NCBI GenBank assembly: GCA_963674745.2
Contig: CAXXDV010000001.1
Coordinates: 160,001-224,000, forward strand
Origin: Desulfosudaceae bacterium
GTDB taxonomy: Bacteria; Desulfobacterota; Desulfobacteria; Desulfobacterales; Desulfosudaceae
Direction: 5' to 3'
Length of the DNA: 64,000 bases
Shown: one piece after another, positions 1 through 16,076 of the stretch
How the letters are laid out: every line of letters starts with the position of its first letter
How positions within the stretch are numbered: the stretch's first letter is position 1
Notes under the pieces: generated by a model
Seen by the model: the letters and a program-made list of their open reading frames with translations, nothing else
Databases searched by the model: none
Told to the model about the DNA's origin: nothing
Translations under genes and position numbers: made by a program

Positions 1-1101
1 ATCATACAGTTGTCTTTTGGTTGTTTTTTTAATATCGATAACCGCTTCCAGTATCTCGCACTCTTTAACCACTTCGGGCAGGTCCACGGACACTTCGAGC
101 CCGAGGTTGACGTCCCCGCCGGCAACAGCGTCCCTTCTTTCTCCGGAGGGGCCTAACATGACAGCCGTTTCCGGTGCTAGAAGGCGAAGACCGCAATTGT
201 CGGCATATACCGGCCGAAACAGAATCATTTCTTCCGGCAACGGATCGCCCGGATTGCGGTTTGCCTGGAGCTCAAAATCCAGAGACAGGGAACCGCCCGG
301 TTCAAGGGGGTCGGAGATGACAAATGTCCCTGATCCGGCATCATAAACAAAACCCGGAGACATTTCACTGACAGTGACAAAAAAACGGGTCAGGTTGGTT
401 TCAAGGGCAAGGCCCGACGCCCTGCCGTCACCGGTGTTGCTGATGGAAATGCTTACCGGCTGTTTGTGTCCGGAAACAAATGATTCGGGAGAGATATCGA
501 CCGTATAACGAATTTCCGGGGTGGTGATCACGGGGGCCAGGTAATAAATTTTTTCCGACTGGCAGGAATACAACTCATCGGTAAACACATAAACGGACAG
601 ATCTTTGCAGGAAGCGACTTCCAGGTCAAAGGTATACCAGCAGGTTGAATCAGACAGCCGCTCACCGACAACGAGTGATTTCCGGGGCATGCCGATGATC
701 TCCGGGATATCGACATCGATTTTCTGGGCCTGTTCGTCATAGCGGCATTGGACACGATTGGTCGACAGGCTGCCCCGGTAAACAAAGCCTTCCCCCCAGG
801 ACGCGCTGCACTGCAATAAACGCAAAATACCGGAATAGGAATTATGAATCCGGACCCGAAAGGTAATCACATCCCCCAGGTCCGCTTCCGGATAGGCCGT
901 GGGGGATATTGCCTGACCGTTTATTTTGACCGCCTCCAGGTAGGACTCGACACTGTCCTGGACCCTGGGCGCATCGATCACGACCGGATCCGCCTCGTTA
1001 ACGGCGGCCGTGACGCCGGCTGAAAAAAAGATCAAACAGATTAACAACAAAGGCAAAACACGTAAAAACGATAAATTAACCCTCACATTAATCCTTGACA
1101 T
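1..1101 (-). CDS. Secreted protein with Ig-like/DUF11-like beta domains (5' part; runs off window edge)
   Basis: Not in the ORF track because it has no stop in the window. ATG at 1101 follows an AAGGA RBS. Translates MSRINVRVNLSFLRVLPLLLICLIFFSAGVTAA (signal-like), then GDVITFRVRIHN and VSISISNTGDGRA, which are typical DUF11/CARDB-like strands. Confidence 0.7.
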   Translation of the reverse strand, partial: MSRINVRVNLSFLRVLPLLLICLIFFSAGVTAAVNEADPVVIDAPRVQDSVESYLEAVKINGQAISPTAYPEADLGDVITFRVRIHNSYSGILRLLQCSASWGEGFVYRGSLSTNRVQCRYDEQAQKIDVDIPEIIGMPRKSLVVGERLSDSTCWYTFDLEVASCKDLSVYVFTDELYSCQSEKIYYLAPVITTPEIRYTVDISPESFVSGHKQPVSISISNTGDGRASGLALETNLTRFFVTVSEMSPGFVYDAGSGTFVISDPLEPGGSLSLDFELQANRNPGDPLPEEMILFRPVYADNCGLRLLAPETAVMLGPSGERRDAVAGGDVNLGLEVSVDLPEVVKECEILEAVIDIKKTTKRQLYD

Positions 1102-1125
1102 GACGTTCCTTTTAAAAATTACCCC

Positions 1126-1806
1126 TTATGGTACCATCGGGCTGATCACCGGGCGCCTGCCCTCGCCTTCGATGGTGATCCGTGACACGCCGATCGCCAG
1201 TAAAGCCGGTTGCGGCAGGGAATGGCGGTTGAACACATGACCGAAAAAATCCAGAAACGAATGGTAAACGGCGATTACGGTTGCCGGCGGGATATTAAAC
1301 CACCGGACGACCTGCACCACCAACTCCCGTTCGGCTTCGTTTTCCGCCAGGGCCCGCAATAAATCGGCTTTGGTGCGATCATGCCTGAGCATGAAATCAC
1401 AGGTCTCATAAAGACCGCCGAGACCGGTTTCCCATTGAATCAACCAGGTCAACACCTGTTCCGGAGGCGTGCCCCGCTCGTTCAAAACCCCGAGAGCACT
1501 TTCAAAATCCAGGTCCCCCTGAAGGCAGAACAGGATGATCTTTTCCGGTTCAATACCCGCCGCCAGCAGCGCCTCGACCAGCGCCGACGGGGATACCCCG
1601 CTGTTTTTAGCGGCTTTGATAATAAGCGCAATAGGAACATTCGCGTTCAACAGCATCTTCACGGCCGCTGAAACATCGCCTTTTTCAAACGCGGATTGGG
1701 GCAGGGTTTCGCTGTAGGTTGATGCCGGCACATTAATCGCGCCCGCGAACAGCGGCAGGCCGAACACAAAGCACACGACCACACCCAAAACTGTAAATTT
1801 CTTCAT
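1126..1806 (-). CDS. Secreted hypothetical protein, helical
   Basis: 226-aa ORF with an N-terminal signal peptide (MKKFTVLGVVVCFVFGLPLFAGA) and a GGGGGA RBS. Confidence 0.7.
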   Translation of the reverse strand: MKKFTVLGVVVCFVFGLPLFAGAINVPASTYSETLPQSAFEKGDVSAAVKMLLNANVPIALIIKAAKNSGVSPSALVEALLAAGIEPEKIILFCLQGDLDFESALGVLNERGTPPEQVLTWLIQWETGLGGLYETCDFMLRHDRTKADLLRALAENEAERELVVQVVRWFNIPPATVIAVYHSFLDFFGHVFNRHSLPQPALLAIGVSRITIEGEGRRPVISPMVP

Positions 1807-2024
1807 GGTTCCCCCCAGTTTTTACCGGTATTAAAAAAAACCGGCAAATGGAAAGTAAGTACCCAAAAAAACTACATCAATTAAAAAATGAAGATTATCA
1901 CGAAATGAACAGCCCGTCAATTAAAAACTGAAAAAATATCATACACCTGACACTTTCCTCGCCGGAATCTAACAGACTCTCCGGAGACACCCCCAACTTG
2001 CGACATAATCACCTGAGCCCTGGA

Positions 2025-2076
2025 CCTCGAACCCCAAACCTCGAACCTCAAACCCCGAACCCCGAACCCCGAACCC
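2025..2076. repeat. Degenerate heptamer tandem repeat (CCCGAAC)n overlapping the ABC transporter stop
   Basis: cctcgaa-ccccaaa-cctcgaa-cctcaaa-ccccgaa x3. The same heptamer recurs at about 13077-13104. Confidence 0.85.
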
Positions 2077-3883
2077 CCAGCCTCTTAACCTGCTTTTCAT
2101 ACAACTCCGCATAATACCCCTTATTCCGCATCAGCACTTCATGCTCCCCCTGCTCCACAATGCGCCCCTCCCGTAATACCAAAATCCGGTCGGCCAGACG
2201 AACCGTGGAAAACCGGTGACTGATCAACAGGGCACTTTTATTCTCCAGAAGTTCCCGGAACCGGGTAAACACCTCGTATTCGGCCTTGGGGTCCAGGCTG
2301 CTGGTCGGCTCATCCAGCACGATCAGCCGGGCGTCCCGCAAAAAAGCCCGGGCCAGGGCGATCATCTGCCACTGGCCGATGCTCAGTTCCACCCCGTCCT
2401 TGAATATTTTGCCCAGAATGGTCTGGTATTCTTTCGGCAGGGCCGCAATTACCCGGTGGGCCCCGGCCCGTTCGGCTGCCCCTCGAACCGTCGCCATTTC
2501 GGCTTCCGGCAGATCAATGTTGCCGAACCGGATATTGTCGGCCGCAGACAGATTGTATTTGACAAAATCCTGAAAAATAACACTGATCTCTTGCCGAAGA
2601 TCGGCAATACCGTACCTGTCCAGGGGAATACCCTCCAGGGTAATCCGGCCCTGTGGGGGGTCATAAAGCCGGCACAAAAGTTTGGCAATGGTGGTTTTGC
2701 CGGATCCGTTTTCACCGACCAGGGCCACCACTTCCCCGGGTTTGATGCAAAAAGACGTGTCTTTGAGCACCATGGCCGGGGTGTTGGGATAGCCGAACCA
2801 GACATTTTCAAAGCAAAACCCGTCGCGCTCATTCCCGGGTATCGGCAGGGGTTTGTCCGGATCTTTAACAACCGGCTCAACATCCAGAAACTGAAACAGA
2901 TAGGCCAGAAACAGGTTGCACTCGTACAGATCCGCCATCCCGGCCAGCACATTTTTCAAGGCCCCCAGCCCCCGCTGAAAGGCCTGGTAAAACATGACCA
3001 TATCACCCGGCGTAATGGCGCCGGTCACCGCCCGCCAGGCCATGACCCCGAACATGCCGAACACGGCCGCGAAACTGCCCATCTGGGCCAGTAAATCCGC
3101 AATTGCCCGCCGCCGTGAAATGGACAGCTTTTCTTTCCGTAATGACCGCCGCACCCGGTTAAAGCGATGGCTGATCTCCGTTCCAATGCCGAACAGCCGC
3201 ACTTCCTTGGCATGGACGTTGCCGGTTAAAATCCAGTTATAATAAGCGGCCATGCGCTCATCCGGGGTTTTTTGGGCCTGCCAGTTGAACATGACCCGGG
3301 AAAACTTGATCCGGACCAGGATACCCGGCACCGCCGCCAGCACCAGGATGACGGCCACGGCCCAGTGAAATGTCAACAGCAAGCCGGCCATGGCCAGCAA
3401 AGAGATACTGCTCTGCCCCAGTTGAATGAGGGTATTGACGATCTGTGTCGGCCGGAACGGCCCCTCCCGCTGGGCCCGGTGCAGGGTGTCAAAATACTGG
3501 GGGTTTTCATAAAAATCCAGATCCGCCTCAATGGATTTGGCATGCAGCACATCATACATCCGGTCCCCCACCTTGAGGCTCAAGGCCTCGCGCATCAATC
3601 CGGATATGGACTGCAAACCCGCTTGCCCCAGGGCCAGTCCCCCGGCACCGACCACCAGCATCATCACCCGCCCAAAAGCCGCCTGCGGATCCGGTGACCC
3701 CATGGCCCCAATCACCGTATCCACGATCAGCTTCATCAAATACAACGATGCCAGGGGCAAAATCCCCTGCAGGGCCATGATCACGGCCGACCCGACCACC
3801 CGGCCCGGAGCGGCCCGCCACACAAACCCCACCGCCCGGTCCAACCGCACGGCATGACGTATTTTTTGACGCAACGGTTTCAT
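2048..3883 (-). CDS. ABC exporter, fused permease + ATPase
   Basis: 611 aa with N-terminal TM helices, Walker A GENGSGKT, signature LSIGQWQ, Walker B LIVLDEPT and H-loop ISHR. Confidence 0.93.
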   Translation of the reverse strand: MKPLRQKIRHAVRLDRAVGFVWRAAPGRVVGSAVIMALQGILPLASLYLMKLIVDTVIGAMGSPDPQAAFGRVMMLVVGAGGLALGQAGLQSISGLMREALSLKVGDRMYDVLHAKSIEADLDFYENPQYFDTLHRAQREGPFRPTQIVNTLIQLGQSSISLLAMAGLLLTFHWAVAVILVLAAVPGILVRIKFSRVMFNWQAQKTPDERMAAYYNWILTGNVHAKEVRLFGIGTEISHRFNRVRRSLRKEKLSISRRRAIADLLAQMGSFAAVFGMFGVMAWRAVTGAITPGDMVMFYQAFQRGLGALKNVLAGMADLYECNLFLAYLFQFLDVEPVVKDPDKPLPIPGNERDGFCFENVWFGYPNTPAMVLKDTSFCIKPGEVVALVGENGSGKTTIAKLLCRLYDPPQGRITLEGIPLDRYGIADLRQEISVIFQDFVKYNLSAADNIRFGNIDLPEAEMATVRGAAERAGAHRVIAALPKEYQTILGKIFKDGVELSIGQWQMIALARAFLRDARLIVLDEPTSSLDPKAEYEVFTRFRELLENKSALLISHRFSTVRLADRILVLREGRIVEQGEHEVLMRNKGYYAELYEKQVKRLGVRGSGFGV

Positions 3884-3927
3884 TTTTTATTCATTAAATT
3901 TTATTCGGACGGTTATGAAGGTTTTAA

Positions 3928-4063
3928 GTGGTTATGTGGTTATGTGGTTATGTGGTTAGGTGGTTAGGTGGTTAGGTGGTTATGTGGTTATGTGGTTAGG
4001 TGGTTAAGTGATTAAGTGGTTAGGTGGTTAGGTGGTTATGTGGTTAGGTGGTTAAGTGATTAA
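3928..4063 (+). repeat. Octamer tandem array (GTGRTTAD) x17
   Basis: 17 consecutive 8-nt units counted (gtggttat/gtggttag/gtggttaa/gtgattaa). Confidence 0.95.
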
Positions 4064-4081
4064 GTGGTCGGGTTCCTGCCT

Positions 4082-4356
4082 CGTCATTCCGGGCAGTGGA
4101 GCGAAGCGGAACGTGACCCGGAATCTAGAAAAGGATTTAGGTTTTAGCGTTTTAAGGTTTAACCGTCCGTCCGTACTATGTGTCTCGGGTGTAGGGGCGA
4201 CCGGCTGGTCGCCCTTCCATAATGATATTCGACAGAACTGGATTCCGGATCTTGCCCCGCCTTCGGCGGGTCTTGTCCGGAATGACGATGCCAAGGATTG
4301 CGACACACTCTCTTGACCCGGAATCCAGATCGACCATGGCAACCCCGGGCTGAACA
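4082..4356. repeat. Cluster of REP-like palindromes (CGTC-type at 4082-4128, 4238-4287, 4312-4328; GTAG-type at 4191-4215)
   Basis: cgtcattccggg...cccggaatc; ctggattccgg...ccggaatgacg; gtag-gggcgacc-ggct-ggtcgccc. Confidence 0.85.
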
Positions 4357-4503
4357 AAAACAAAACAGAACAACACACCGACACCCCAATCCGTGTAATC
4401 CGTGTCAAAAAAAAGCGGAACACCTCGCACAGGCCACCCCCACCGCTCAAACCCCGCCACCGCCACCGCAATGCGGCCCCGCCACACCTCAAACCCTGCC
4501 CAC

Positions 4504-4591
4504 ATAACCACTTAAACACATAACCACTTAAACACATAATCACATAACCACTTAACCACTTAATCACTTAATCACTTAACCACATAACCAC
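4504..4591 (-). repeat. Octamer tandem array x11, inverted relative to 3928-4063
   Basis: ataaccac/ttaaccac/ttaatcac/ataatcac/ttaaacac units. Confidence 0.95.
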
Positions 4592-4660
4592 CTAAAACTT
4601 ATTGAAGTAAAACAGGACAAACAGGGCATGATATGCCCAGAATGGATTACGACGATACGA

Positions 4661-5248
4661 CTATACTTTTTCGACCGGCCCGATGACCAAATCCCACGGC
4701 TTTCGGCACTCAAAAGCACCCGTGTCCGGCCGGAAGCGGGCCACAACCCGTTTATTGCAGATATATTGAATATGTGTCCCTTTAGCGGAGTTGATCATGA
4801 GCCGGGTGATGCGGGGCCGCCAGAACCAACTGACGATTCCGGATGTCCTGAGTCTGTCATAAAGGGGAAAAATGATTCGAACCCCTTGCCGGCGTACTTT
4901 CCAGTAGCAATGAAGCCCCCAGCCACGGCAACGTCCAAGCCATCCGCCATGAACAATTAAAATACGGCCATTGCGTTCTTTATAACATACCCGGCCCACA
5001 AAATTACTTTCAGTCACCACCCCTTTGTCCTCGTGCGCTAAAGCATCCCCACGAGTTACCAGCCCCCCGCTGATGCGTCGCACCACCCGGTGGACGATCT
5101 CATCTTGCTCTTCCCCGCGCTGCCTGAAAAACACCACCACATCCCCGGGCCTTACCCGCGACAGCGACACAGGCTCAACCGTCAACACATCCCCCGGTTG
5201 AAAGGCGCCTTTCATGCTTAAGCCAAGATATACTCGTTGTGTATGCAT
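4661..5248 (-). CDS. S24/S26 family (signal peptidase I-like) peptidase
   Basis: GLSM (catalytic Ser), PGDVVVF, IVHRVV (His) and TRGD motifs. Start placed at ATG 5248 to avoid overlap with the upstream ORF. Confidence 0.8.
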   Translation of the reverse strand: MHTQRVYLGLSMKGAFQPGDVLTVEPVSLSRVRPGDVVVFFRQRGEEQDEIVHRVVRRISGGLVTRGDALAHEDKGVVTESNFVGRVCYKERNGRILIVHGGWLGRCRGWGLHCYWKVRRQGVRIIFPLYDRLRTSGIVSWFWRPRITRLMINSAKGTHIQYICNKRVVARFRPDTGAFECRKPWDLVIGPVEKV

Positions 5249-5261
5249 TCTCAGACCTGCG

Positions 5262-5528
5262 CTACCAGCCGGGCGAATCGCCCGTGTGACAACTCTCACC
5301 CGCAGTCCCACCATGCGTATAACAATTTGAAGTTGCTACATTGCCAGTTGGGCAATATGGTGTGTATGCAGGATCATTGCCCCATCCGCAGGTCAAACCA
5401 GCATTCGATCCACCTCTACATTGATCTCCTGCACTGGTTCCATCGCTACACGATTCCCCCAAGACTGAAGCGATTTTCCCCACAGCCATGCTCTTCGGTT
5501 TTTCATATTTAATTTTTTTGTTTGGCAT
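5262..5528 (-). CDS. Putative RiPP precursor peptide (YEKP leader, six Cys repeats)
   Basis: 88 aa with an AGGGG RBS. Basic leader, then a Gly/Ser/Thr-rich core with Cys at 27, 37, 47, 59, 69 and 80. Lies inside the rSAM/PqqD operon. Confidence 0.85.
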   Translation of the reverse strand: MPNKKIKYEKPKSMAVGKIASVLGESCSDGTSAGDQCRGGSNAGLTCGWGNDPAYTPYCPTGNVATSNCYTHGGTAGESCHTGDSPGW

Positions 5529-5545
5529 AACGCACCCCTGTCAGG

Positions 5546-6115
5546 TTAATTGTCAGAAATTTTAATTATAGTTTCATCTAATCTTTTTTGCAACAAAGAG
5601 ACAACCGACTGCTTTTCAAGCGAGAATTGCAACTGCCATCCCGGATATTGCCTGGCCATCAAAACCGCGAACTGAAACCATCTTTGTGCCAGATCCGGGC
5701 GGGTCTTTTTTCGCTGGATATCAATCTCAAAAACCGCGTCCATAAGATATTCACAGGTTTTAATCGAAGACAGTGGCTTTAGGTCAGTATGTTGAGCTGC
5801 GAAAATACGAACAATGGCATGCAGCGGATACCACCTATCCTCTTCCTGCAATATCTCCTTATACGTACTGTCGTTTTCATATACCATAGATTTAATTTGG
5901 CGGCCGCTCATTACCCCCCAAATCCCGTTGTTCAATGATCTGGCAAACACCAGATCATCCGCGATCAAATAAAAATGGTCAGAAAGCAATGAGCTTAGCG
6001 TCGTTTTGCCGGAGCAGGAATGCCCCATCAACAAAATAGCGCCATAGGGGCCATCAACAGCCGCCGCATGCAAAAACAGACCGAATTTGCTATGAGAGAC
6101 AATTGGTTCCGGCAT
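5546..6115 (-). CDS. HPr kinase-like P-loop protein (ScmC-like)
   Basis: FLHAAAV, Walker A GHSCSGKTTLS and IADD motifs match HprK-related kinases. ATG 6115 follows a GAGG RBS. Confidence 0.7.
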   Translation of the reverse strand: MPEPIVSHSKFGLFLHAAAVDGPYGAILLMGHSCSGKTTLSSLLSDHFYLIADDLVFARSLNNGIWGVMSGRQIKSMVYENDSTYKEILQEEDRWYPLHAIVRIFAAQHTDLKPLSSIKTCEYLMDAVFEIDIQRKKTRPDLAQRWFQFAVLMARQYPGWQLQFSLEKQSVVSLLQKRLDETIIKISDN

Positions 6116-7304
6116 GTTTAACCTCATCGCCTGGTTCATTTGGTGTGTGGCTGTTTTCGATATATGTACGACGGCGTGAATCCGGAAACAACCCGCGTGC
6201 TGCCGCTTCCTGGCACATGGGATCGGGCGATATTAATTTCCCATTTACCACATAATTCTGGGCCACACAATGCATCAGGCATCTGGAAGAGTGAATACAG
6301 TCACCGCAGATACCGGGGTATTGACCGGCAAGGCCGCTTCGCAATTCGTTCAGCAGTGGATGATGGATCCAGACATCTTTTAAATCATCCGTACCCAGAC
6401 TGCCGAAACAAAGCTCCGGAATGGTGCGCCCAATACCGCACAGCGCCATTTCTCCACTCCCCAGGATCCCCAGAACATTTAACACATTACAGGTTCCACA
6501 CGATTTCCCGACGCGGAGGATCTCGGATATGGCGAGCAGGGCCGGAGGCATCATGATGGTCAATGGGATGGAAACGCGCTGCTGAAGCTCCTGATTTATA
6601 TAATGCACCAGTTTGAGCGTCTCATCAAACACGAGGGTATCCCCTTTTTTGTGCAGCCCATCCCCCCGGCCGACACTATTGACCGGGTTGAATTTAACGG
6701 ACCCGACCCCAAGATCAACCGCTAATTGAACCAGGTCGTCTATTTCATGAAGATTGCCACGATGCGGACACATGATGATCTGCGGCCGGAACCCGGCTGC
6801 AACCAGATTTTTAACCCCCTGAACCGCCTTATCAAAAGCGCCTTCAACGCCCCGGAACCAATCGTGATAAGACGGTCTTGGGCTGTCAATGCTGACCGAT
6901 ATGTGCCACAGGCTTGTATTTTCTTTTAAATGAACTGCCAGATCTTTGTCGATCAGCGTACCATTGGTTTCCATGGTCAACGGGATTTTCTGTTCCGTAA
7001 AAAAATCGACGATTTCGACAAACTGGGGGTGTAAAACCGGCTCCCCGCCGGTCAGCTTGGCATTTGTCAATCCGAGGGGCCTGGCAGCTGCCACGGCATT
7101 CTTAAGCTGTTCCAGATCGATATATTCACCCGGTGTCGGCTTGCCATCCACATATGTCGGCGCGATCCAGCAATGTCGGCAGCGCAGGTTGCACCCATTG
7201 GTCAGGTAGAGATAAAAAGAATGTAAAGGGGGTACCCCCTCCGGAAGGTCCAATTGTTCTTGTATAGATTCGGCTTGTTCGGGCGGTTGCATATCACAGC
7301 TCAT
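6090..7304 (-). CDS. scmF: Radical SAM/SPASM maturase, SynChlorMet ScmF-like
   Basis: YLYLTNGCNLRCRHCWI, TGGEP and a C-terminal Cys-rich SPASM region (CGTC, CGDC, C..HC). ATGA overlap with the upstream PqqD gene. Confidence 0.8.
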   Translation of the reverse strand: MSCDMQPPEQAESIQEQLDLPEGVPPLHSFYLYLTNGCNLRCRHCWIAPTYVDGKPTPGEYIDLEQLKNAVAAARPLGLTNAKLTGGEPVLHPQFVEIVDFFTEQKIPLTMETNGTLIDKDLAVHLKENTSLWHISVSIDSPRPSYHDWFRGVEGAFDKAVQGVKNLVAAGFRPQIIMCPHRGNLHEIDDLVQLAVDLGVGSVKFNPVNSVGRGDGLHKKGDTLVFDETLKLVHYINQELQQRVSIPLTIMMPPALLAISEILRVGKSCGTCNVLNVLGILGSGEMALCGIGRTIPELCFGSLGTDDLKDVWIHHPLLNELRSGLAGQYPGICGDCIHSSRCLMHCVAQNYVVNGKLISPDPMCQEAAARGLFPDSRRRTYIENSHTPNEPGDEVKHAGTNCLS

Positions 7305-7903
7305 TCGATGACCTCTCCGATAAAACCGGCTGATTTGAGTTGTTCAATGAAGGCCTCCACATCATTCACAACCTGGTCCTCAGGCACGTCTTCACAGACA
7401 TCCAGCAGATACTCGACAATCTCCTGTTTTGTCCGTGGGTATTCCAGAGACTCCCAAATAGCCAGTCCTGTGGGATTGATGGCCTGAACCGCGTCGGTTT
7501 CCGGGTTGAACAAAATCGCGCCTTCAGGCTCTTCAACACGACAGGAGATGTCGCGATTCATGCTGTATTTTGTATTTTCCATATTTTTAAAATCCTTAAT
7601 GCCTGAAAGTCGGCCCACCTCTTTTATAACAGACTGATTATTCAAATCAATTAAAATGGCCATAACGTCCTGTGCCAACAAATCAGTGGATGTTTCATAG
7701 GTGACATTCAAGACATTAACGATATCATCTACCGTTTGTTTACCATCCAGAAGATTGAGGACATCCCGCGCAACCGCGTTGATTTTCACCAGCCGGCGTT
7801 CCTCGGGCAAAAAAATCAAGGATTCGTCACCAAAATCTTCAATGGCCACATTCTGCCGGACAACATAACGATTATTTAACTCCTGGTCATCGTATTCAAC
7901 CAT
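7301..7903 (-). CDS. Tandem double PqqD/RRE domain protein (ScmD-like)
   Basis: Two PqqD-type units: EDFGDESLIF..INAVARDVLNLLDG and EEPEGAILFNPET..INPTGLAIWESL..DVEAFIEQLKSAGFI. Confidence 0.85.
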   Translation of the reverse strand: MVEYDDQELNNRYVVRQNVAIEDFGDESLIFLPEERRLVKINAVARDVLNLLDGKQTVDDIVNVLNVTYETSTDLLAQDVMAILIDLNNQSVIKEVGRLSGIKDFKNMENTKYSMNRDISCRVEEPEGAILFNPETDAVQAINPTGLAIWESLEYPRTKQEIVEYLLDVCEDVPEDQVVNDVEAFIEQLKSAGFIGEVIE

Positions 7904-7922
7904 TGTTGGTCTCGCAAAAATA

Positions 7923-8004
7923 GTCATTCCGAGCAAGTCCTGCCGAAGGCGGGCCCGCTGGATCCCGGCTCACATTTCGCTTCGCTCCATTGGCCGGGAT
8001 GACG
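7923..8004. repeat. REP-like palindrome inserted between the scmE-like and PqqD genes
   Basis: tggatcccggctcacatttcgcttcgctccattggccgggatgacg is nearly identical to 51872-51917 and resembles the reverse complement of 4082-4128. Confidence 0.75.
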
Positions 8005-8061
8005 AGTTGTGAGACAGTCTCCAAGCCCGGAATTACGATGGCAACACTTTTTATAAAGCCA

Positions 8062-9504
8062 TCAGCCATGGGACAATTCATCAATAAACGGTTTATCAAA
8101 AGCCATTACCTGATTTTTGAATCGCCGATAACAGTCATGGGGATTGGCCCGGTTAATCTCCCCGGTCATTTCATGGGCCAGGCCCGGGCAACTGCCGTTA
8201 CAATACGGCGCCCATTCACAATCTTCGCAACCCGGCACCTGGGTCATGAGGATTTTTCGCCGGTCTTTGAGGGCCTGTAAGGATGAGTGATGCTTCCAGA
8301 TATCGGTTAATCGGCCCTGGTTAACCTGACCCAGCACCACTTTGGCCAGCATGTTACATGGCGTGATAACCCCGTCCGGGTGGACAGAAAGTTTGTTGTA
8401 CATACAGCCACAGGCCGTCAGATAGCCCATTTTCCATCGAGCAGTCATTTCCCCGGTGGCTTTGGCGTGCTCCATTTCCCGGTATGAATACCACTTGGCC
8501 AGGGGACCGGCCGTAGCGGTAACCCGGCCGTTGTATTGTTTTTCCAGCCGGGCCAGGGATTTCATGGCTAGTACCTGCTGCTGCGGTGTCAGTGTAATGG
8601 TTTTTTGATTATTACACCCGGAACCCATGGGCATGGCATCATTGGTTCCGAAACTGTTTATGCCCACATCCTTCAGCAGCAGCCGGGCGATATTATCAAG
8701 GTCGTCTACATTGTGGCGATTGACCGTTACCCGGACGGTTACCGGAAAACCGGTTTCTTTGAGCAGACGCAAAGCCCGGTACGCTTTCTCAAAACTCCCT
8801 TTACCACGGCTTTTGTCATGGACCTCGGCGCAGGAACCGTCAATAGACACCTGGATGCTGTTTAGCCGTTGGCGTCGGTTGTGTTTTTCAAATTCGGACA
8901 AAACCGTTTCCGTAATCAGTGTGCCGTTGCTTAGGATGCTGTAACGCATGCGGCTGTCAATAAGCGCGTCAATCAACGCCCATAAATCCGGCCGGACAAA
9001 GACCTCTCCTCCGCTCAGGGTGGCGCTCCGGACTCCGAATCGTTTTAACTCATCAAAAAAGGTCAGCCATTCCGGAAGCGGCAGGTCCGGACGAGAAGCC
9101 ATTTCATCCGCGTAAAAGCAGTAGGCGCAATGAAGGTTGCATTTTCCGGTCAGGGACAGATCAAAATCTCGAGGGGCATCGGCAATATTTGAATACGCTT
9201 CTGTCGGCATCGGTTTTTCGACCGGGGTTTCCGAGGCAACAGCAAACCCTTCGTTCAGTAATTCACCCGAAAATTCGGTGACGTCGGACAGAATTTCATC
9301 GTTGACGGAGATGTCGCAACGGGCGGCAAGGGTTTGGGCAAGGGCATCGGTGTGCGCCGTGCCGTCCATGGCCTGCCATACGATCAGGCCGGTGAGGTTG
9401 ATGACTTTTTCCCGGCCGGTGTCCGGGTCAAACAAGATGGCATTGTCCCCTTCAAGGCAGACGGAGATTTGGGGTTGGCGGGACCAGTATATTTTATTTT
9501 TCAT
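8062..9504 (-). CDS. scmE: PqqD/RRE fused to radical SAM/SPASM maturase, ScmE-like
   Basis: N-terminal ~95-aa PqqD-like domain (AILFDPDTG..INLTGLIVWQAMDG), then DLSLTGKCNLHCAYC, SGGE and SPASM Cys motifs (CGC, TPC, CEDCEWAPYCNGSC, DC). Confidence 0.8.
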   Translation of the reverse strand: MKNKIYWSRQPQISVCLEGDNAILFDPDTGREKVINLTGLIVWQAMDGTAHTDALAQTLAARCDISVNDEILSDVTEFSGELLNEGFAVASETPVEKPMPTEAYSNIADAPRDFDLSLTGKCNLHCAYCFYADEMASRPDLPLPEWLTFFDELKRFGVRSATLSGGEVFVRPDLWALIDALIDSRMRYSILSNGTLITETVLSEFEKHNRRQRLNSIQVSIDGSCAEVHDKSRGKGSFEKAYRALRLLKETGFPVTVRVTVNRHNVDDLDNIARLLLKDVGINSFGTNDAMPMGSGCNNQKTITLTPQQQVLAMKSLARLEKQYNGRVTATAGPLAKWYSYREMEHAKATGEMTARWKMGYLTACGCMYNKLSVHPDGVITPCNMLAKVVLGQVNQGRLTDIWKHHSSLQALKDRRKILMTQVPGCEDCEWAPYCNGSCPGLAHEMTGEINRANPHDCYRRFKNQVMAFDKPFIDELSHG

Positions 9505-10100
9505 TTTTATTTATTTTTAATGTATGAGTCCATTTTTATTCTGGATTCCGGGTCAAGCCCGGAATGACGAAGCGAAAGACCCGTCATTACGAAACGAAAG
9601 GCATTCGGCATGCCGCCGGCGAAAGGCCCGTCATGACCAAGCGCAAGTCCGTCGTCATTCCGCCAACGCAAGGCCTTCATTACTCGTCATTCCGGACAAG
9701 CGCAACGAAGCGGAGGCCGTCATTACTCGTCATTCCGGACAAGCGCAACGAAGCGGAGGCCGTCATTACTCGTCATTCCGGACAGCGCAGCGCAGCGGAG
9801 CGTGATCCGGAATCCAGTTCTGACGAGCATTATTATACGACTTTACGTTTATTAGCAATACAGCCGGTTGTTTCTGTCTTTCCATTCCCTTTTCTTGTAC
9901 GGCCTTGGTTTGCCATGGCCGATCTGGATTCCGGGTCAAGCCCGGAATGACGAAGCGAAAGGCCCGTCATTACCAAACGAAAGGCATTCGTCATTCCGCC
10001 AACGCAAGGCCGTCATTACTCGTCATTCCGGACAGCGCAGCGCAGCGGAGCGTGATCCGGAATCCAGTTCTGACGAGCATCTTAGCACGACTGAACATAT

Positions 10101-10406
10101 TCACCCGGACTGTTTAATCGAATCATACAAATCTTTCCAGTGCGGGTTTGTTTTTTCAATAAGTTCAATCTTCCACTGACGCTTCCAGTTTTTTAGCTGC
10201 TTTTCCCGGGTAATGGCGGATTCCATCGTGGCATGCAGTTCATACCAGACCAGTCGATGCACATGATATTGTTCGGTAAACCCTTTTATCTGATTGTTCT
10301 TGTGTTGCCATATGCGTTTGACGATATTTGATGTCACGCCGACATAAATCGTGCCATTTTGCCTGCTGGCCAGAATATACACGGCCGGTTGTTTCTGTCT
10401 TTCCAT
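10101..10406 (-). CDS. Small GIY-YIG nuclease family protein, copy 1
   Basis: 101 aa with VYIL..IYVGVT..R..H..E motifs (AITREKQLK) and an AAGGGA RBS. Confidence 0.9.
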   Translation of the reverse strand: MERQKQPAVYILASRQNGTIYVGVTSNIVKRIWQHKNNQIKGFTEQYHVHRLVWYELHATMESAITREKQLKNWKRQWKIELIEKTNPHWKDLYDSIKQSG

Positions 10407-11007
10407 TCCCTTTTCTTGTACAGCCTTGGTCTGACTCCTGCCGATCTGGATTCCGGGTCAAGCCCGGAATGACGAAAGCGAAAGGCCCGTCATTACGAAA
10501 CGAAAGGCATTCGTCATTCCGCCAACGCAAGGCCGTCATTACTCGTCATTCCGGACAGCGCAGCGCAGCGGAGCGTGATCCGGAATCCAGTTCTGACGAG
10601 CATTATTATACGACTTTACGTTTATTAGCAATACAGCCGGTTGTTTCTGGCTTTTCATTCCCTTTTCTTGTACAGCCTTGGTCTGACTCCTGCCGATCTG
10701 GATTCCGGGTCAAGCCCGGAATGACGAAAGCGAAAGGCCCGTCATTACGAAACGAAAGGCATTCGGCATGCCGCCGGCGAAAGGCCGTCATGACCAAGCG
10801 CAAGTCCGTCGTCATTCCGCCAACGCAAGGCCGTCATTACTCGTCATTCCGGACAAGCGCAACGAAGCGGAGGCCGTCATTACTCGTCATTCCGGACAAG
10901 CGCAACGAAGCGGAAGCCGTCTTTCCTCGTCATTCCGGACAGCGCAGCGCAGCGGAGCGTGATCCGGAATCCAGTTCTGACGAGCATCTTAGCACGACTG
11001 AACATAT

Positions 11008-11313
11008 TCACCCGGACTGTTTAATCGAATCATACAAATCTTTCCAGTGCGGGTTTGTTTTTTCAATAAGTTCAATCTTCCACTGACGCTTCCAGTTTTT
11101 TAACTGCTTTTCCCGGGTAATGGCGGATTCCATCGTGGCATGCAGTTCATACCAGACCAGTCGATGCACATGATATTGTTCGGTAAACCCTTTTATCTGA
11201 TTGTTCTTGTGTTGCCATATGCGTTTGACGATATTTGATGTCACGCCGACATAAATCGTGCCATTTTGCCTGCTGGTCAGAATATACACGGCCGGTTGTT
11301 TCTGTCTTTCCAT
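11008..11313 (-). CDS. Small GIY-YIG nuclease family protein, copy 2
   Basis: Identical to copy 1 except A13T. Confidence 0.9.
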   Translation of the reverse strand: MERQKQPAVYILTSRQNGTIYVGVTSNIVKRIWQHKNNQIKGFTEQYHVHRLVWYELHATMESAITREKQLKNWKRQWKIELIEKTNPHWKDLYDSIKQSG

Positions 11314-11611
11314 TCCCTTTTCTTGTACAGCCTTGGTCTGACTCCTGCCGATCTGGATTCCGGGTCAAGCCCGGAATGACGAAGCGAAAGGCCCGTCATT
11401 ACGAAACGAAAGGCATTCGGCATGCCGCCGGCGAAAGGCCGTCATTCCTCGTCATTCCGGACAAGCGCAGCGCAGCGGAGGCCGTCATTACTCGTCATTC
11501 CGGACAGCGCAGCGCAGCGGAGGCCGTCATTACTCGTCATTCCGGACAGCGCAGCGCAGCGGAGCGTGATCCGGAATCCAGGCCAAGCGAACCCCGGAAT
11601 GACGACACCAA

Positions 11612-12811
11612 TTAATGCCTAAATGTCTTTACCAGTTCAACCAATAACCCAAAGGGACGAAAAAGAAAATAAAACCCGGAAAACCGTGAATCCCTGGAAT
11701 GCTTTTCCCAATCTTTCTGGGTGGGGATAAAAATCCGGCGCAGAAGATAATGAAACTTGTCTCCGGGATGTTCCCGGATTTTCAAATAATAAGGAAGCTC
11801 AGCAATACGACCTTCGATCCCTTTTGTCTGATGGTTGCCATCAAATAAATCCGTATATATTCTTTGAACAATTTTTCTAATAGTTTTGTCTTTTTTAATA
11901 TTATCAACGATTTCCACCGGCAATGTGATGCCAAACACATCCCGGGCCAGAAAAAGGCCCAGCAGCAACCGTCTCCGGCAATGAAGCAATCCGGCCAGCT
12001 TGAGCGTCAATTGCCAGTCAAGCGCCGGATGTTGGCCTATCCATTCGGCAACACATAGGACCTTCTCCAGATGATTCCAGATATCATGGGCACCGTTAAG
12101 GCACAGACACAACAGCATATCTTCCGCTGACAGGCTGAGTATATCCCGGCCATCAAAACTAATTTTTTGCAGCCGTTCTTTGCAGAATTCATAATCAAAA
12201 GCCTGCCGATAAGGCACGCTGACCTGCCAGTGCAGATCGATTTGCAGCTCTTCAGCTGCATCTAAAAAATGGCACTCTCTGGCGTATTTCAGAACCTGCA
12301 CAAAACGTTTGCCGGACAGCCATTTTACAGAAGGAAACAACCGGGATTCCAGAAGCGCGTCCCGGGCCGAAACAACCTGATCTTCCGGCACCAGTACATC
12401 CACATCCTGATAATACCTGAGGGCGCTGTCACCATACAGGCATTGTGACAACAAGGGCCCTTTGTAAAGAACAGCCGGGATACCACGCTGCTCAAACCGA
12501 GCCAGGACAGCCATCAGCTTTTTGCATATCCTGAGGTTGTAGGCGACTATATTTAAATACTGACGGGAAAAGTTACTTTGCACGGCCTCCGGCAACACCG
12601 GCAGCAATCCTGCCTTCTTGATATTGGCATACAAAACCGGCAGAACACGGTGATTTTCTGCCAGCCGCAAAATCCGCTCCCAGTCAACCCCTCCGATTTC
12701 AACCAGCTCGCCTGCCCGCCTGATCCTTTCCGGCGTCAAATCCGCCCGGATCAGGACCAGAAGCAACTCAAAATCAGCCGATTGTTTCTTACTGACAAAT
12801 TCGCTATACAC
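11612..12811 (-). CDS. Nucleotidyltransferase family protein (NTP_transf_5-like)
   Basis: DWE..LAENHRV, LYKG..LY..R.YQDVDVLV and IDLHW motifs; GTG start. Confidence 0.85.
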   Translation of the reverse strand: MYSEFVSKKQSADFELLLVLIRADLTPERIRRAGELVEIGGVDWERILRLAENHRVLPVLYANIKKAGLLPVLPEAVQSNFSRQYLNIVAYNLRICKKLMAVLARFEQRGIPAVLYKGPLLSQCLYGDSALRYYQDVDVLVPEDQVVSARDALLESRLFPSVKWLSGKRFVQVLKYARECHFLDAAEELQIDLHWQVSVPYRQAFDYEFCKERLQKISFDGRDILSLSAEDMLLCLCLNGAHDIWNHLEKVLCVAEWIGQHPALDWQLTLKLAGLLHCRRRLLLGLFLARDVFGITLPVEIVDNIKKDKTIRKIVQRIYTDLFDGNHQTKGIEGRIAELPYYLKIREHPGDKFHYLLRRIFIPTQKDWEKHSRDSRFSGFYFLFRPFGLLVELVKTFRH

Positions 12812-13098
12812 TCACACCCCGCCTGCCTGAAACGAAAAACCACTGTTTAATCAATCTTTCTTTAATGGGTGCCACATTTGTCCTGTACAACCTCGGCATA
12901 CCACGGCCGCTCTGGATTCCGGGTCAAGCCCGGAATGACGAAGCGAAAGGCCGCCATTACTCGTCATTCCGGACAGCGCAGCGACAGCGGAGCGTGATCC
13001 GGAATCCAGTAGGGCGGCCCACCCCACTGCTCACACCCCGCCCACATAATCACATAATCACATAAACACCTAATCACCCCGAACCCCGAACCCCGAAC

Positions 13099-13123
13099 CC
13101 CAAACCTGCCCCGCAGGTTTGGG
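13099..13123 (-). terminator. Hairpin immediately downstream of the sugar transferase stop
   Basis: Perfect 11-bp stem cccaaacctgc-ccc-gcaggtttggg; no clear U-tract. Confidence 0.4.
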
Positions 13124-15130
13124 TCACCCGCTCCTGGCGCTCTTCACAAAAATATTATACAGCGCCCAGAATCCGTAATACAGGTCCGTCTTGACCGGAT
13201 TTTTCAAATAGGCCCGCAGATATTTTTTTTCGGAAGCACAGATTTCCTCAAAGGTTTCGGGCATATCCACATAAAAGGGCGGAATCAGACCCGGCTTGGT
13301 CTGCTGGCGCAAATTGCGCAACGCTTCGTCATACAGGCTCAAATAATGGGTGCTCAAGGGCCGGACCCCGACCACTTTCAAATCCCCCCTTAACCAGTTG
13401 TACAGCATGGGCAGCTCATCGATCCACAACTTGCGAAACACCTTGCCCCAGCTGGTGACCCGAAAATCATCCTTGATCTTCCCCCCCTCCTTCAGCCCCT
13501 GATGTTCAAATACATAATCCTGCAAGAACTCCGAATAGGGATGCATGGTCCGCAGCTTGAACACATCAATCATCTTTCCCTGGTACCCGCTCCGGCGCAG
13601 GCTCACCATGGGACCGTAAGTGGGGTTTTCATTAAACGACGGTTTTTTCGCTTTCCGGGCAATCACCCACATTCGTCTGTCTATCTCCTGTTCAGCCACA
13701 ATATCAAATCCGCAGAACGACAACCGGCCCAGCACCTCGGCCCGGGAAAGAATCCGGTTTTTGCCCCTGGTAACGACAAAATACAAAGCATTGATCCGGG
13801 GCAGTTTGGGCAGGACCCGGTTAAACAGAAAGTCCAGGCTGTACAAAACATGGGCCAGCAGCCGCGGGAACTTGCGGTAGACCCATTCATAATGGGTTTT
13901 GATGGTATGGGCATAACCGATAAAATACCCTCCGGCCAGCAGCCCCTGGTGGATATTCAAAAAATATTCATTCACCCTTCGCACGTCATTTATTTTATGC
14001 AGGTTGATAAACAACCGGGTGGGGATTTCTTCTTCCAGGTTTCGAAACAACGGATCGCTGCTTTGCTCAATGGCGGTCTCCAGGCACAGGATCTCGTTCA
14101 GCTCCGGGATGTTTTCTTCAATAAAGTCAAAAACCCCGGGCAAGGCAACGGCCAACCGCTTTTCGATTTTGTTTTTTGCCGGGGCCAGCAGTTTTTCACG
14201 GATGGCCTCGATATCCACATTCATGTCCACCGGTGCCTGGTCCAGGATCTGCTGGACCGCTTCCACGGACTCGATATCTTTTTCCGCAGCCCGTTTCTTA
14301 CGCCCCCCCAGCACGACGGACAACAGAACCCCCTCAAGCACCATCAAAAAAACAACCGTGCCAAACCCCTGGAACCGGGAAAAATGAAACAACCGAAAGG
14401 CGAATACCACCACCCCCACGCTGGCCAGCATGATCATCCCGGCCTTTTCCCATTGCCAGAACACATCATAAGCGGTTTGCGACCGGAGGATGACAAACTT
14501 TTTTGTGGCCAGGGCACAAAAAAGCCACAGCACCAGCATCACCAGCAGCAACTTGTCATAGGCCGGCAGCAACCCCCAGTGCCCCCGTTTCATGTAATTG
14601 ACCAGAAAAAACGAAATCAACACCAGGGCCAGGTCCGCGGCCACCAGCCGGTAATGGATTACGAACCGGGCAACATCCCGGGGCATGGTCTCCCCGCCAT
14701 GGTCGGCATCAGCCGTTTGATAGGCAGCAACCGGCTGCCAAATCGACCAGGCCAGCACATTCAACAAAAAAAATAACAGGCCGGTGGCAAACACCTGCAC
14801 CCGAGAATACATGGTCAGACCGAAAAACACGATCAGAAAAGTGATGACATAGGTCAAATAGCAATTGGCCTTGAAAACGACCACCAACCCGTCCCGGTAG
14901 CCATCGTACTCCCCGGGTTGAAACTTTTTGGCCACCAGAGAAGACACCAGCCAGCAGACGACAAACAAAAGCAGCAGAAGGTCATACCTTGGTGGCAGGA
15001 GCAAATCCCCCCGCTTGAAGTAATTGCCCAGAAAAAAAGCAATCACCAGCAAACCAAAATCCACCCAGAACAGCTTGCGCCCGGTCAGCACCATCCCTTT
15101 TGATTCATTTCCACCGTTCTTCAAATCCAT
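13124..15130 (-). CDS. Membrane sugar transferase (polyprenyl-phosphate glycosylphosphotransferase, Bac_transf C-terminal domain)
   Basis: Many TM helices, then FKLRTM, DFRVTSWGKVFRKLWIDELPML.NWLRGDL.VVGVRP and KPGL motifs. Confidence 0.85.
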   Translation of the reverse strand: MDLKNGGNESKGMVLTGRKLFWVDFGLLVIAFFLGNYFKRGDLLLPPRYDLLLLLFVVCWLVSSLVAKKFQPGEYDGYRDGLVVVFKANCYLTYVITFLIVFFGLTMYSRVQVFATGLLFFLLNVLAWSIWQPVAAYQTADADHGGETMPRDVARFVIHYRLVAADLALVLISFFLVNYMKRGHWGLLPAYDKLLLVMLVLWLFCALATKKFVILRSQTAYDVFWQWEKAGMIMLASVGVVVFAFRLFHFSRFQGFGTVVFLMVLEGVLLSVVLGGRKKRAAEKDIESVEAVQQILDQAPVDMNVDIEAIREKLLAPAKNKIEKRLAVALPGVFDFIEENIPELNEILCLETAIEQSSDPLFRNLEEEIPTRLFINLHKINDVRRVNEYFLNIHQGLLAGGYFIGYAHTIKTHYEWVYRKFPRLLAHVLYSLDFLFNRVLPKLPRINALYFVVTRGKNRILSRAEVLGRLSFCGFDIVAEQEIDRRMWVIARKAKKPSFNENPTYGPMVSLRRSGYQGKMIDVFKLRTMHPYSEFLQDYVFEHQGLKEGGKIKDDFRVTSWGKVFRKLWIDELPMLYNWLRGDLKVVGVRPLSTHYLSLYDEALRNLRQQTKPGLIPPFYVDMPETFEEICASEKKYLRAYLKNPVKTDLYYGFWALYNIFVKSARSG

Positions 15131-15209
15131 GCCCCCCCTCTGGCCCCTGAAACCCCATAACAACCTTACAGGTAACTACACTAAAACCTTCCCCCCCTGC
15201 GAACCAGTC

Positions 15210-16076
15210 TTACAAAAATTTCATATTGTTCAAAACATGGCGGAAGTACTCCCTGGACCAGACATCCAGATCTACTGGCCGGGGGACAAAGGGCAGAATA
15301 TCGGCCTTGGCTGCTTCAAAATCCACTGCGTCAATCCGTTGCCCAATCATATCCAGACAACGGGATTTATCCAAAGGCCCCTCCTCCTTATAAACGCCTT
15401 TTTGCCGCAGCCGTTCTTCCAGATGAGATAGCAGCAAGGGAATATTTTTCCGCACCAGGAACGCAAAATCAAACCAGTCCCGGCCTTTCACCCGGTTTTG
15501 CCATCCACGAGACAAAACCGCGTCCATTTTTCCCGCAAAAAGCGCCGGACCGGAATACGCCCGCAAGGAAAACGGAACCGGCTCGTCAATGTAAGCCACC
15601 TCGAAGTCTGCGCCAGATGGCGGGTCAATATCCACTTCCAGCTTTACTTTACAAACCGCATCCCGATGAATCCTGCCGGCAACAGCCTCCGGCACTTTGG
15701 CCTTCATCATATGAATCCGTGTGTTTGCCTTGATAAATGCCGACGCAATCGGCGAATCTTGCTTTTTCCGATGCGCCTGAATATCCACCGTAAAGCCAAA
15801 GGCGCTCATCTCGTCTTTTAATGACGCGAAAAAAGCGGCCAGGCTAAAATCCCCATCAGGTGCCATCAAGGAAAAATCAAGGTCCTCGGAAAATCGGTCC
15901 AGGTGATACAATAGTCGCAGAGCTGTTCCCCCGTAAAACGCGGCATAAGAAAAAAATCCACCGCGCGACAACCCCAGCAAAGCAATCGATTGAACTGTTT
16001 CTGCAAGTGCCCGGTCCACTGCCCCATTATATTTCTCAAGATACGACTCTAATAATTGAACACTTGCCTCACGCAT
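15210..16076 (-). CDS. AbiEii-type nucleotidyltransferase toxin (type IV TA)
   Basis: FYGGTALRLLY.LDRFSEDLDF, K.EVD and KGRDWFD motifs. Confidence 0.9.
   Translation of the reverse strand: MREASVQLLESYLEKYNGAVDRALAETVQSIALLGLSRGGFFSYAAFYGGTALRLLYHLDRFSEDLDFSLMAPDGDFSLAAFFASLKDEMSAFGFTVDIQAHRKKQDSPIASAFIKANTRIHMMKAKVPEAVAGRIHRDAVCKVKLEVDIDPPSGADFEVAYIDEPVPFSLRAYSGPALFAGKMDAVLSRGWQNRVKGRDWFDFAFLVRKNIPLLLSHLEERLRQKGVYKEEGPLDKSRCLDMIGQRIDAVDFEAAKADILPFVPRPVDLDVWSREYFRHVLNNMKFL

Follow-up and report, generated by a model that had tools for sequence, protein, structure and literature searches.

A divergent SynChlorMet-type cassette from a Desulfosudaceae bacterium and its probable Cys-repeat precursor peptide

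What is the role of a small peptide with a YxxP leader motif and six cysteine repeats that is encoded in one operon with two radical S-adenosylmethionine (rSAM) enzymes? We addressed this question in a 64,000-nt stretch of DNA from a Desulfosudaceae bacterium (assembly GCA_963674745.2, contig CAXXDV010000001.1, positions 160,001 to 224,000), which we call the window. Coordinates given without a locus name are positions in the window, and G000 denotes its own genome. The peptide, here given the working name P0001, has 88 residues and is encoded at 5262-5528 on the minus strand. Our analysis indicates that P0001 is with high probability a real precursor of a RiPP (a peptide that the ribosome makes and that is modified after translation), that it is translated and that it is the substrate of the surrounding operon. 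It appears to belong to the ScmA type, and the cassette around it, judged by sequence comparison, is a divergent sub-type of a catalogued, chemically uncharacterised cassette named SynChlorMet. The PqqD-type domains mentioned below are RiPP recognition elements (RREs). The genes, in minus-strand order with the PF14907 gene upstream, are as follows.

11612-12811, minus strand: PF14907 nucleotidyltransferase, LppN-like (PF14907, 169.4 bits)
8062-9504, minus strand: ScmE-like rSAM/SPASM protein, 480 residues (TIGR04250, 387.2 bits, cut-off 400; also PF05402, PF04055 and PF13186)
7301-7936, minus strand: ScmD-like protein with two PqqD/RRE domains, 211 residues (best hit TIGR04248, 71.1 bits, cut-off 100; PF05402 in two stretches)
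6090-7304, minus strand: ScmF-like rSAM/SPASM protein, 404 residues, with C38-x3-C-x2-C (best hit TIGR04251, 367.4 bits, cut-off 400)
5546-6139, minus strand: short ScmC/HprK-like P-loop protein, 197 residues, Walker A motif GHSCSGKT at residue 39 (HprK_rel_A, E 0.0025; ScmC, E 0.0037)
5565-5593, minus strand: promoter-like site TTGCAA-17-TATAAT, sigma-70-like by consensus match (10 of 12 positions)
5262-5528, minus strand: P0001, probable ScmA-type precursor peptide, 88 residues by translation, with leader Y8-E-K-P11, six C-x-x(-x)-G units and the C-terminus SPGW
4661-5248, minus strand: SipW/Sec11-type (S26) peptidase, 195 residues (TIGR02228, 48.6 bits, cut-off 51.85; aligns to SEC11A)
2048-3883, minus strand: MsbA-like ABC exporter, 611 residues (family scans; no peptidase family among its Pfam matches)

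The minus-strand translation consists of MPNKKIKYEKPKSMAVGKIASVLG followed by the six units, identical to the reading in the initial annotation of this DNA. A recount also reproduced the cysteine pattern described there: the gaps between cysteines are 10, 10, 12, 10 and 11, with CxxG at five of the six cysteines and CxxxG at the other. The good ribosome-binding site and the co-oriented position inside an operon that it had reported are both borne out. AGGGG followed by 6 nt precedes the ATG at 5528, and all cassette genes lie on the minus strand. P0001 starts 17 nt past the stop of the upstream ScmC-like gene and ends 13 nt ahead of the ATG of the S26-like gene at 5248. A 217-residue open reading frame (ORF) called at 4661-5314 overlaps the P0001 gene; this overlap is removed because the ATG at 5248 is available as a start. 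When the 64-residue core was shuffled, at least five CxxG motifs arose in 171 of 200,000 shuffles, and all cysteine gaps fell within 10-12 in 6 of 200,000. The Cys-repeat pattern of P0001 is therefore not a product of chance. The promoter-like site at 5565-5593 lies inside the ScmC-like gene, at its 3' end, with the P0001 ATG following about 37 nt downstream, and could give the precursor its own transcript; the promoter scan of the region found 19 sites compared to 11.7 expected. The sequencing runs containing the stretch are two DNA runs of one study, with no RNA run listed. A Sec signal peptide in P0001 was considered and rejected, as by eye the leader is charged and has no long hydrophobic run, and the S26 protein likewise has no hydrophobic N-terminal stretch.

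Is P0001 a gene at all? A chance open frame in the spacer between the ScmC-like and peptidase genes would be consistent with the lack of a match over any curated family cut-off, including in a Pfam scan of P0001. It would also be consistent with the low G+C content at third codon positions (0.40 in P0001, 0.49-0.71 in its neighbours). We consider such an origin extremely improbable. In other phyla, the same slot holds homologues in which the Tyr, Pro, Cys and Gly columns are conserved, and the shuffle counts, the ribosome-binding site and the tight spacing all argue for a gene. A search of 5.8 billion clustered proteins returned one close homologue, P0002, which has 77 residues, is 61% identical to P0001 and has one unit fewer. 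The cluster representative P0093 is 50% identical, and the nearest clusters in the ESM Atlas are hypothetical proteins of 75-89 residues with scores of 0.91-0.92. Searches of genome contigs and metagenome contigs with P0001 alone found no relative.

A profile built from the peptide alignment A2 reached much further. It matched 1,529 clusters (50% identity) at E<=1e-3 among 1.84 billion representatives. The top 150 hits include 142 small proteins, and all but two of these (140) carry [YFW]xxP and at least two CxxG motifs, again arguing against a chance frame. In four long proteins (P0003, P0007, P0019 and P0031, 770-1843 residues), the similarity to the ScmA profile is confined to its repeat part and comprises 5-14 stretches. 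These may be giant relatives, or Cys/Gly-repeat proteins with no relation to the family.

If P0001 is the substrate of rSAM enzymes, related peptides are expected beside related enzymes. We ran TIGR04250 against 401 genomes from the phylum to which the window belongs; 21 exceeded the cut-off and 34 matched at E<=1e-60. From this sample, 20 loci in 19 genomes were surveyed. Both ScmE and ScmF are present in 16 of them, and the other four have ScmE alone, without a peptide. The check suggested in the initial annotation, to scan other scmE/scmF loci in six frames, found YxxP plus CxxG-repeat ORFs in 12 of the 16 two-rSAM loci and in 53 of 80 loci of a wider set. The peptides were detected by a homology-free pattern scan and by a small hidden Markov model (HMM) of the leader and first units. 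The HMM was trained on ten peptides of the same loci, so that only L046, L047, L055, L062 and the second L059 copy are new hits of the model. In three of the four misses (L043, L058 and L061) the contig ends no more than about 0.5 kb from the cassette, and the fourth is L060. A tblastn search with P0001 also matched small ORFs beside bona fide ScmE genes (>400 bits); among the matches listed are L053 (1e-09), L051 (7e-07), L049 (1e-06) and L056 (3e-06). Most of the 20 loci share the gene order PqqD-ScmE-ScmF with S26, ABC and/or PF14907 genes after it. The wider set came from a search with the ScmE alignment A3 against 185,579 species genomes, which gave 374 relatives, of which 80 loci were kept; three of these are the same records as training loci. 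The 53 loci hit by the leader HMM are spread over several bacterial phyla and methanogens.

The peptide and the enzyme also occur in the same genomes. Searching the 401 genomes with A2 at E<=1e-5 found an ScmA-like peptide in 31. Both features are present in 27 genomes, ScmE only in 7, the peptide only in 4 and neither in 363. In 18 of the 27 double-positive genomes the two lie at most 10 kb apart.

Some further observations were made in these surveys. A more remote clade of ScmE-like genes, scoring 215-242 bits against TIGR04250, likewise has ScmA-like peptides within 1-3 kb, for example in G078:C66, G342:C589, G091:C2 and G012:C61; the genomes G078 and G342 belong to the same taxonomic order as the window. 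L059, which is the same record as L134, contains two ScmA-type genes (11205-11690 and 2708-3184) in which a long (Gly-Thr)n run separates the leader from the core; the second gene is out of frame downstream. L095, on the chromosome of Methanospirillum lacunae, has five paralogous long ScmA-like peptides around one ScmE relative. This species is a cultured methanogen and a possible experimental host.

The peptides of this family follow common rules, which we derived from 55 unique cores with 360 cysteines. Glycine at +3 of Cys is the most conserved non-Cys position (308 of 358, 86%). Ala, Val or Pro is found at +6 in 251 of 357 cases, and 198 of 305 cysteine gaps measure 10-11 residues. The first Cys lies 13-17 residues past YxxP in 53 of the 55 cores, most often 14, which places it at Y+18, and 41 of the 55 have 6-8 residues after the last Cys. 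P0001 fits this description. It has Y8 and P11, its first Cys is 15 residues after the Pro and eight residues follow the last Cys. Five of its six units are CxxG, its gaps are 10-12, and its +6 residues are A, A, P, A, T and P.

The initial annotation had taken it, subject to verification, that the original SynChlorMet family descriptions left the precursor unidentified. This premise is outdated, as NCBIfam release 20 contains TIGR04252, 'SCM_precur_ScmA'. P0001 reaches 9.7 bits against this model (E 0.95), below the cut-off of 35. Ten other cassette peptides from loci L044-L059 do not reach 35 bits either, the best scoring 22.8. Since no scanned cassette peptide passes, the cut-off does not separate them and the model is narrow. 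Genes of this kind are therefore probably left unnamed by family-based annotation. In our literature search, which left subscription journals mostly outside its reach, we found no paper with the SynChlorMet cassette name, its accessions or its product chemistry. The cassette is known only as database families.

How closely does the cassette in the window resemble these families? SynChlorMet comprises ScmA (TIGR04252), ScmC (TIGR04249), ScmD (TIGR04248), ScmE (TIGR04250) and ScmF (TIGR04251). The initial annotation had described the neighbouring enzymes as ScmE/ScmF-like. The likeness stands, as the best NCBIfam hits are the matching SynChlorMet models for ScmE, ScmF, ScmD and the ScmC-like protein; formal membership does not, as all score under their cut-offs. 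For the ScmE-like protein, TIGR04250 is the best model by far, with the next family at 124.8 bits; bona fide ScmE members of the window's phylum score 509-654 bits. The CxxxCxxC motif (C122-x3-C-x2-C in the ScmE-like protein) and the C-terminal Cys clusters are retained in both rSAM enzymes. As in SynChlorMet, a single operon combines two PqqE-like rSAM/SPASM enzymes with a PqqD-type RRE, an HprK-like protein and a small peptide of Cys repeats. The window differs from SynChlorMet in that its ScmE-like protein has a fused N-terminal PqqD/RRE domain (residues 23-87), its ScmD-like protein has two RREs and its ScmC-like protein is cut down to 197 residues. P0001 also exceeds the 49 positions of the ScmA model in length and has SPGW at its C-terminus. 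By the curated cut-offs the cassette lies outside the NCBIfam equivalogs; by its architecture and the peptide rules it would work like SynChlorMet.

The differences recur elsewhere. The closest relatives of the ScmE-like protein among the kept loci (53-58% identity) are in L064 and L065, both Verrucomicrobia metagenome-assembled genomes (MAGs), L066, a Clostridia MAG, and L067, an Anaerolineaceae MAG. All four loci have the order ScmE(RRE)-ScmD(2xRRE)-ScmF-short ScmC seen in the window, and the 197-residue ScmC-like protein is kept in the same slot with 30-33% identity. In L066 (E 2e-11) and L067 (E 3e-08), a P0001 homologue is located between the short ScmC gene and the S26 gene, the same slot as in the window. 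The alignment of four peptides of this sub-type (A4) has invariant leader columns K5, Y8, K10, P11, G17 and G24. In the core, C27, C37, C59, C69 and C80 (five of the six cysteines of P0001) are invariant, together with G30, G62, G83 and P86.

Several points weigh against reading P0001 as the precursor of a working SynChlorMet-like cassette. The low third-position G+C content of its gene, given above, is one. All five cassette proteins score under the NCBIfam cut-offs (387/400, 367/400, 71/100, 16.6/125 and 9.7/35). The HprK/ScmC identity of the 197-residue protein depends on E values of about 0.003 and a P-loop: it has 16.6 bits against the TIGR04249 cut-off of 125, and its HprK_rel_A match is also far under the cut-off. 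L060 has full flanks and no peptide hit, and in the two closest relatives, L064 and L065, the 8-kb flanks show no peptide and no S26 gene. The co-occurrence counts lack phylogenetic independence, and seven of the 27 double-positive genomes, as well as G000, supplied rows to the A2 profile used for them.

The leader would be recognised through Y8-x-x-P11, which one of the three PqqD/RRE domains (two in the ScmD-like and one in the ScmE-like protein) would take up as an extra beta-strand. That RRE domains bind YxxP motifs, as the initial annotation stated, has been demonstrated experimentally for relatives: the lasso B1 RREs TbiB1 and TfuB1 bind [Y/W]xxP leaders (PMC13381572). Among PDB entries, those closest to the ScmD family profile are TbiB1 (E 2.6e-10), 9x8z_B and TfuB1. 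Lasso peptides are also tailored by HprK-like kinases and nucleotidyltransferases (PMC8498205). The window differs from lasso/paeninodin-type clusters: the ten proteins scanned (1126-15163) have no NCBIfam or Pfam match to a lasso cyclase or B2 peptidase. A predicted complex of the ScmD-like protein with P0001 residues 1-40 gave an ipSAE of 0.57 compared to 0.02 for the best control, with a partner pLDDT (predicted local distance difference test) of at least 54 and contact agreement of at least 78%. When the method was calibrated, 116 of 157 solved complexes passed the mark, as did 2 of 215 mismatched pairs; scores up to 0.60 comprise only 18 of the 157 solved complexes and both mismatched pairs that passed. 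On the scale of the prediction tool this is weak support, and because RRE-leader complexes have already been solved, the score may reflect likeness only, a further point against the proposed binding.

What would the rSAM enzymes do to the core? The RRE would hand it to both of them, and each C-x-x-G-x-x-[A/P] unit would be modified, most likely to give one thioether from the Cys sulfur to a carbon per unit. That some thioether is formed seems to us somewhat more likely than not. Our preferred, tentative guess for its position is a link that joins Cys(i) with the Gly(i+3) alpha-carbon, so that six small rings would result, none nested in another. Streptosactin and StsA provide precedents. Streptosactin has unnested rings with Cys25-Ser28 and Cys31-Gly34 alpha-thioethers (PMC8172795), and StsB makes three Cys-Gly sactionines in StsA (PMC10288494). 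In both systems (GggA/GggB and StsA/StsB), a SPASM rSAM enzyme links a Cys sulfur to a Gly alpha-carbon, which we propose likewise for P0001. The precedents have two or three links and one rSAM enzyme each, whereas the P0001 family has six to ten periodic units and two rSAM enzymes; the accessible text of the two papers mentions no S26/HprK/PF14907 module. The leads towards this chemistry are indirect. The nearest solved structure to the ScmE-like protein is SkfB (E 1.4e-17), StsB is among its better named matches (E 3.7e-32), and Gly is conserved at +3.

The two enzymes may instead modify the peptide in another way. They could form thioethers to beta- or gamma-carbons, as in ranthipeptides, for example at +6. 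They could also link different units, or carry out two chemistries, a crosslink together with epimerisation or a C-C bond. We give this group of outcomes close to even chances, ahead of the Cys-Gly(+3) link. Several observations against the Cys-Gly(+3) detail favour it. The unit is conserved out to Ala, Val or Pro at +6 and 6-8 residues are kept after the last Cys, which a +3 acceptor alone would not require, and two different rSAM enzymes are conserved together. The best characterised relative of the ScmE-like protein by score is WgkB, whose NCBIfam name is radical SAM/SPASM peptide maturase. The nearest solved structure to the ScmF-like protein is PqqE (E 4.3e-15). PqqE forms a C-C bond. On the other side, the +3 Gly remains the most conserved non-Cys position, and Cys-to-Gly i+3 alpha-thioethers have experimental precedent in streptosactin (PMC8172795). 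Two other ideas were rejected. MftC-like C-terminal chemistry for ScmF does not fit the family, whose C-termini are not conserved, and the ACGX-repeat and anSME-type motifs differ from the unit here, CxxGxx[A/P].

The remaining genes of the operon point to a second set of activities, on which the initial annotation did not remark. The clusters for linear polyphosphorylated peptides (LPP) of Paenibacillus alginolyticus have the composition lppA-K-B-S-D-N (Popov et al., Nat Commun 2026, PMC13381572). As described in that paper, they encode an archaeal-type signal-peptidase-like protein LppS (S29/H68/D93), the RRE LppB, the HprK-like LppK, the NTP transferase LppN and an MsbA-like pump (PMC13381572). 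LppK polyphosphorylates Ser3 of the LppA core. Cleavage by LppS after T-1 requires LppB, and the unphosphorylated precursor is cut poorly (PMC13381572). The clusters are located in capsular-polysaccharide loci and the family is described as restricted to Bacillota; text searches of the paper found none of the terms 'radical SAM', 'rSAM' and 'SPASM' (PMC13381572).

Much of this set appears to be present in the window. It has the peptidase and the RRE, the PF14907 enzyme, the ABC exporter and a YxxP leader, and its kinase match is weak (E 0.0025). Like LppS, the S26 peptidase appears to be an anchor-less archaeal/SipW-type signal-peptidase-like protein with Ser, His and Asp. Its alignment to SEC11A spans the SM..P, HRV and GD motifs, the candidate triad is S11, H53 and D68, and by eye there is no hydrophobic N-terminal stretch. 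By analogy it is likely the leader peptidase, and homologues are found in 15 of the 20 surveyed loci. MsbA-like exporter homologues with 50-55% identity follow the cassette in L044, L053, L055 and L059. Eight of the 20 loci have PF14907 homologues, as do L066 and L067; in the window this gene is parted from the cassette by a 2.1-kb repeat-rich spacer. Polysaccharide genes are also nearby, as in the LPP clusters.

13124-15163, minus strand: polyprenyl glycosylphosphotransferase-type sugar transferase, adjoining the cluster (family scans)

By their families and order, the S26 peptidase, HprK-like, PF14907 and MsbA-like genes thus appear to form an LPP-type module. The likeness is set by gene families and motifs and not by sequence alignment with LppK or LppS. 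There are also differences. The window adds two rSAM/SPASM enzymes and a Cys-repeat core and falls outside the linear-product definition, and past YxxP the P0001 leader is unlike the LPP precursor motif YxxPxVLxHQxIxFETxxS (PMC13381572). In the LPP register, the cut lies at Y+15|Y+16 and the phospho-Ser at Y+18. The same positions in P0001 are L23|G24 and the serine S26. Position Y+18 is occupied by the first Cys in most ScmA-type peptides and by this serine in P0001. We infer from this that residue S26 and LppA Ser3 match in register.

The module likely adds phosphorylation and RRE-guided leader cleavage to the pathway. The HprK-like protein may phosphorylate the Ser at the leader-core junction (residue S26, Y+18). 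The RRE would then present the junction to the anchor-less SipW-type peptidase, which would remove about 23-24 leader residues, in analogy to LppB and LppS. The product would be exported by the MsbA-like ABC transporter and may be decorated by the PF14907 enzyme.

Could this half of the operon act on P0001 alone? The peptide would then be exported linear and phosphorylated, with free thiols or as a metal binder, and the rSAM enzymes would act elsewhere or make a cofactor. An LPP module alone suffices to process a YxxP peptide (PMC13381572). Peptide and ScmE are not within 10 kb of one another in 9 of the 27 genomes that have both, and the nearest named families of ScmF include the cofactor enzymes AhbD, NirJ2 and MftC. 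A satellite locus in the window's own genome offers a further argument. L063 7526-9962 (G000:C1, about 283.5-286 kb) is located 120 kb away, outside the window, and contains three Scm-type genes and no rSAM gene. They encode a 105-residue ScmD-like RRE protein, a 94-residue ScmA-type peptide with six CxxG units (L063 9120-9404) and a 554-residue ScmC::S26 fusion.

Four observations make us regard such an rSAM-independent role as improbable, if less so than a chance frame. A peptide without an ScmE-type gene is found in only 4 of 31 genomes, which are 62-90% complete. The RRE fused to ScmE suggests that the substrate is a peptide. Strict periodicity of 10-11 residues together with the conserved +3 Gly resembles a unit recognised by an enzyme. 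In addition, the LPP precursor motif differs past YxxP (PMC13381572).

Modification of P0001 by the rSAM enzymes is the preferred reading. The genome has one ScmE-type, one ScmF-type and two ScmA-type genes in total. A second ScmE/ScmF pair serving the satellite locus was considered and rejected, as none was found in the genome. With only one pair present, the L063 peptide probably uses the window's ScmE and ScmF in trans. The ScmC part of the L063 fusion scores 144.9 bits, over the cut-off of 125, and is bona fide ScmC; the 197-residue protein of the window is 42% identical to it over 48 residues, and the S26 peptidase is 29% identical to the fusion over 194 residues. By this fusion, the window's own genome links the ScmC activity to that of the peptidase.

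An Rfam scan of window positions 1-16000 at gathering scores gave no match. Arrays of 8-nt tandem repeats of the GGTTATGT / GGTTAGGT type are found at 3892-4099 and 4485-4604 in inverted orientation. Their arms are 101-114 nt long and 80-85% complementary, match no Rfam family and enclose some 420-460 nt in the interval that separates the S26 and ABC genes. The repeat-rich spacer at 9505-11611 contains two near-identical ORFs of 101 residues (10101-10406 and 11008-11313) that are GIY-YIG-like by eye. It also holds five exact copies of a 47-nt element that occurs nowhere else in the genome at up to 3 mismatches. Diverged copies of this element are present at 4074-4128 and, inverted, at 7958-8006.

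Taken to its full extent, the proposal is of a hybrid product. Two rSAM enzymes would form six consecutive four-residue Cys-S-C(alpha)-Gly(+3) rings, one every 10-11 residues. Residue S26 would be phosphorylated before the RRE-guided cut, the product would be exported, and one ScmE/ScmF pair would serve two unlinked precursor loci of the genome. We consider the complete combination unlikely. If true, it would be an undescribed 'string of beads', an iterated streptosactin topology. SynChlorMet would then be the radical-SAM branch of the LPP pathway, distributed across anaerobic bacteria and methanogens and not only Bacillota.

The ScmA-type peptides constitute a large orphan RiPP family. The 2026 LPP work provides tested functions for counterparts of the cluster's non-radical genes. 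The window is a compact and complete test case, with one precursor, three RREs, two rSAM enzymes, a kinase-like protein, a peptidase and an exporter. Its connection with LPP suggests that LPP-type machinery may extend far wider than Bacillota.

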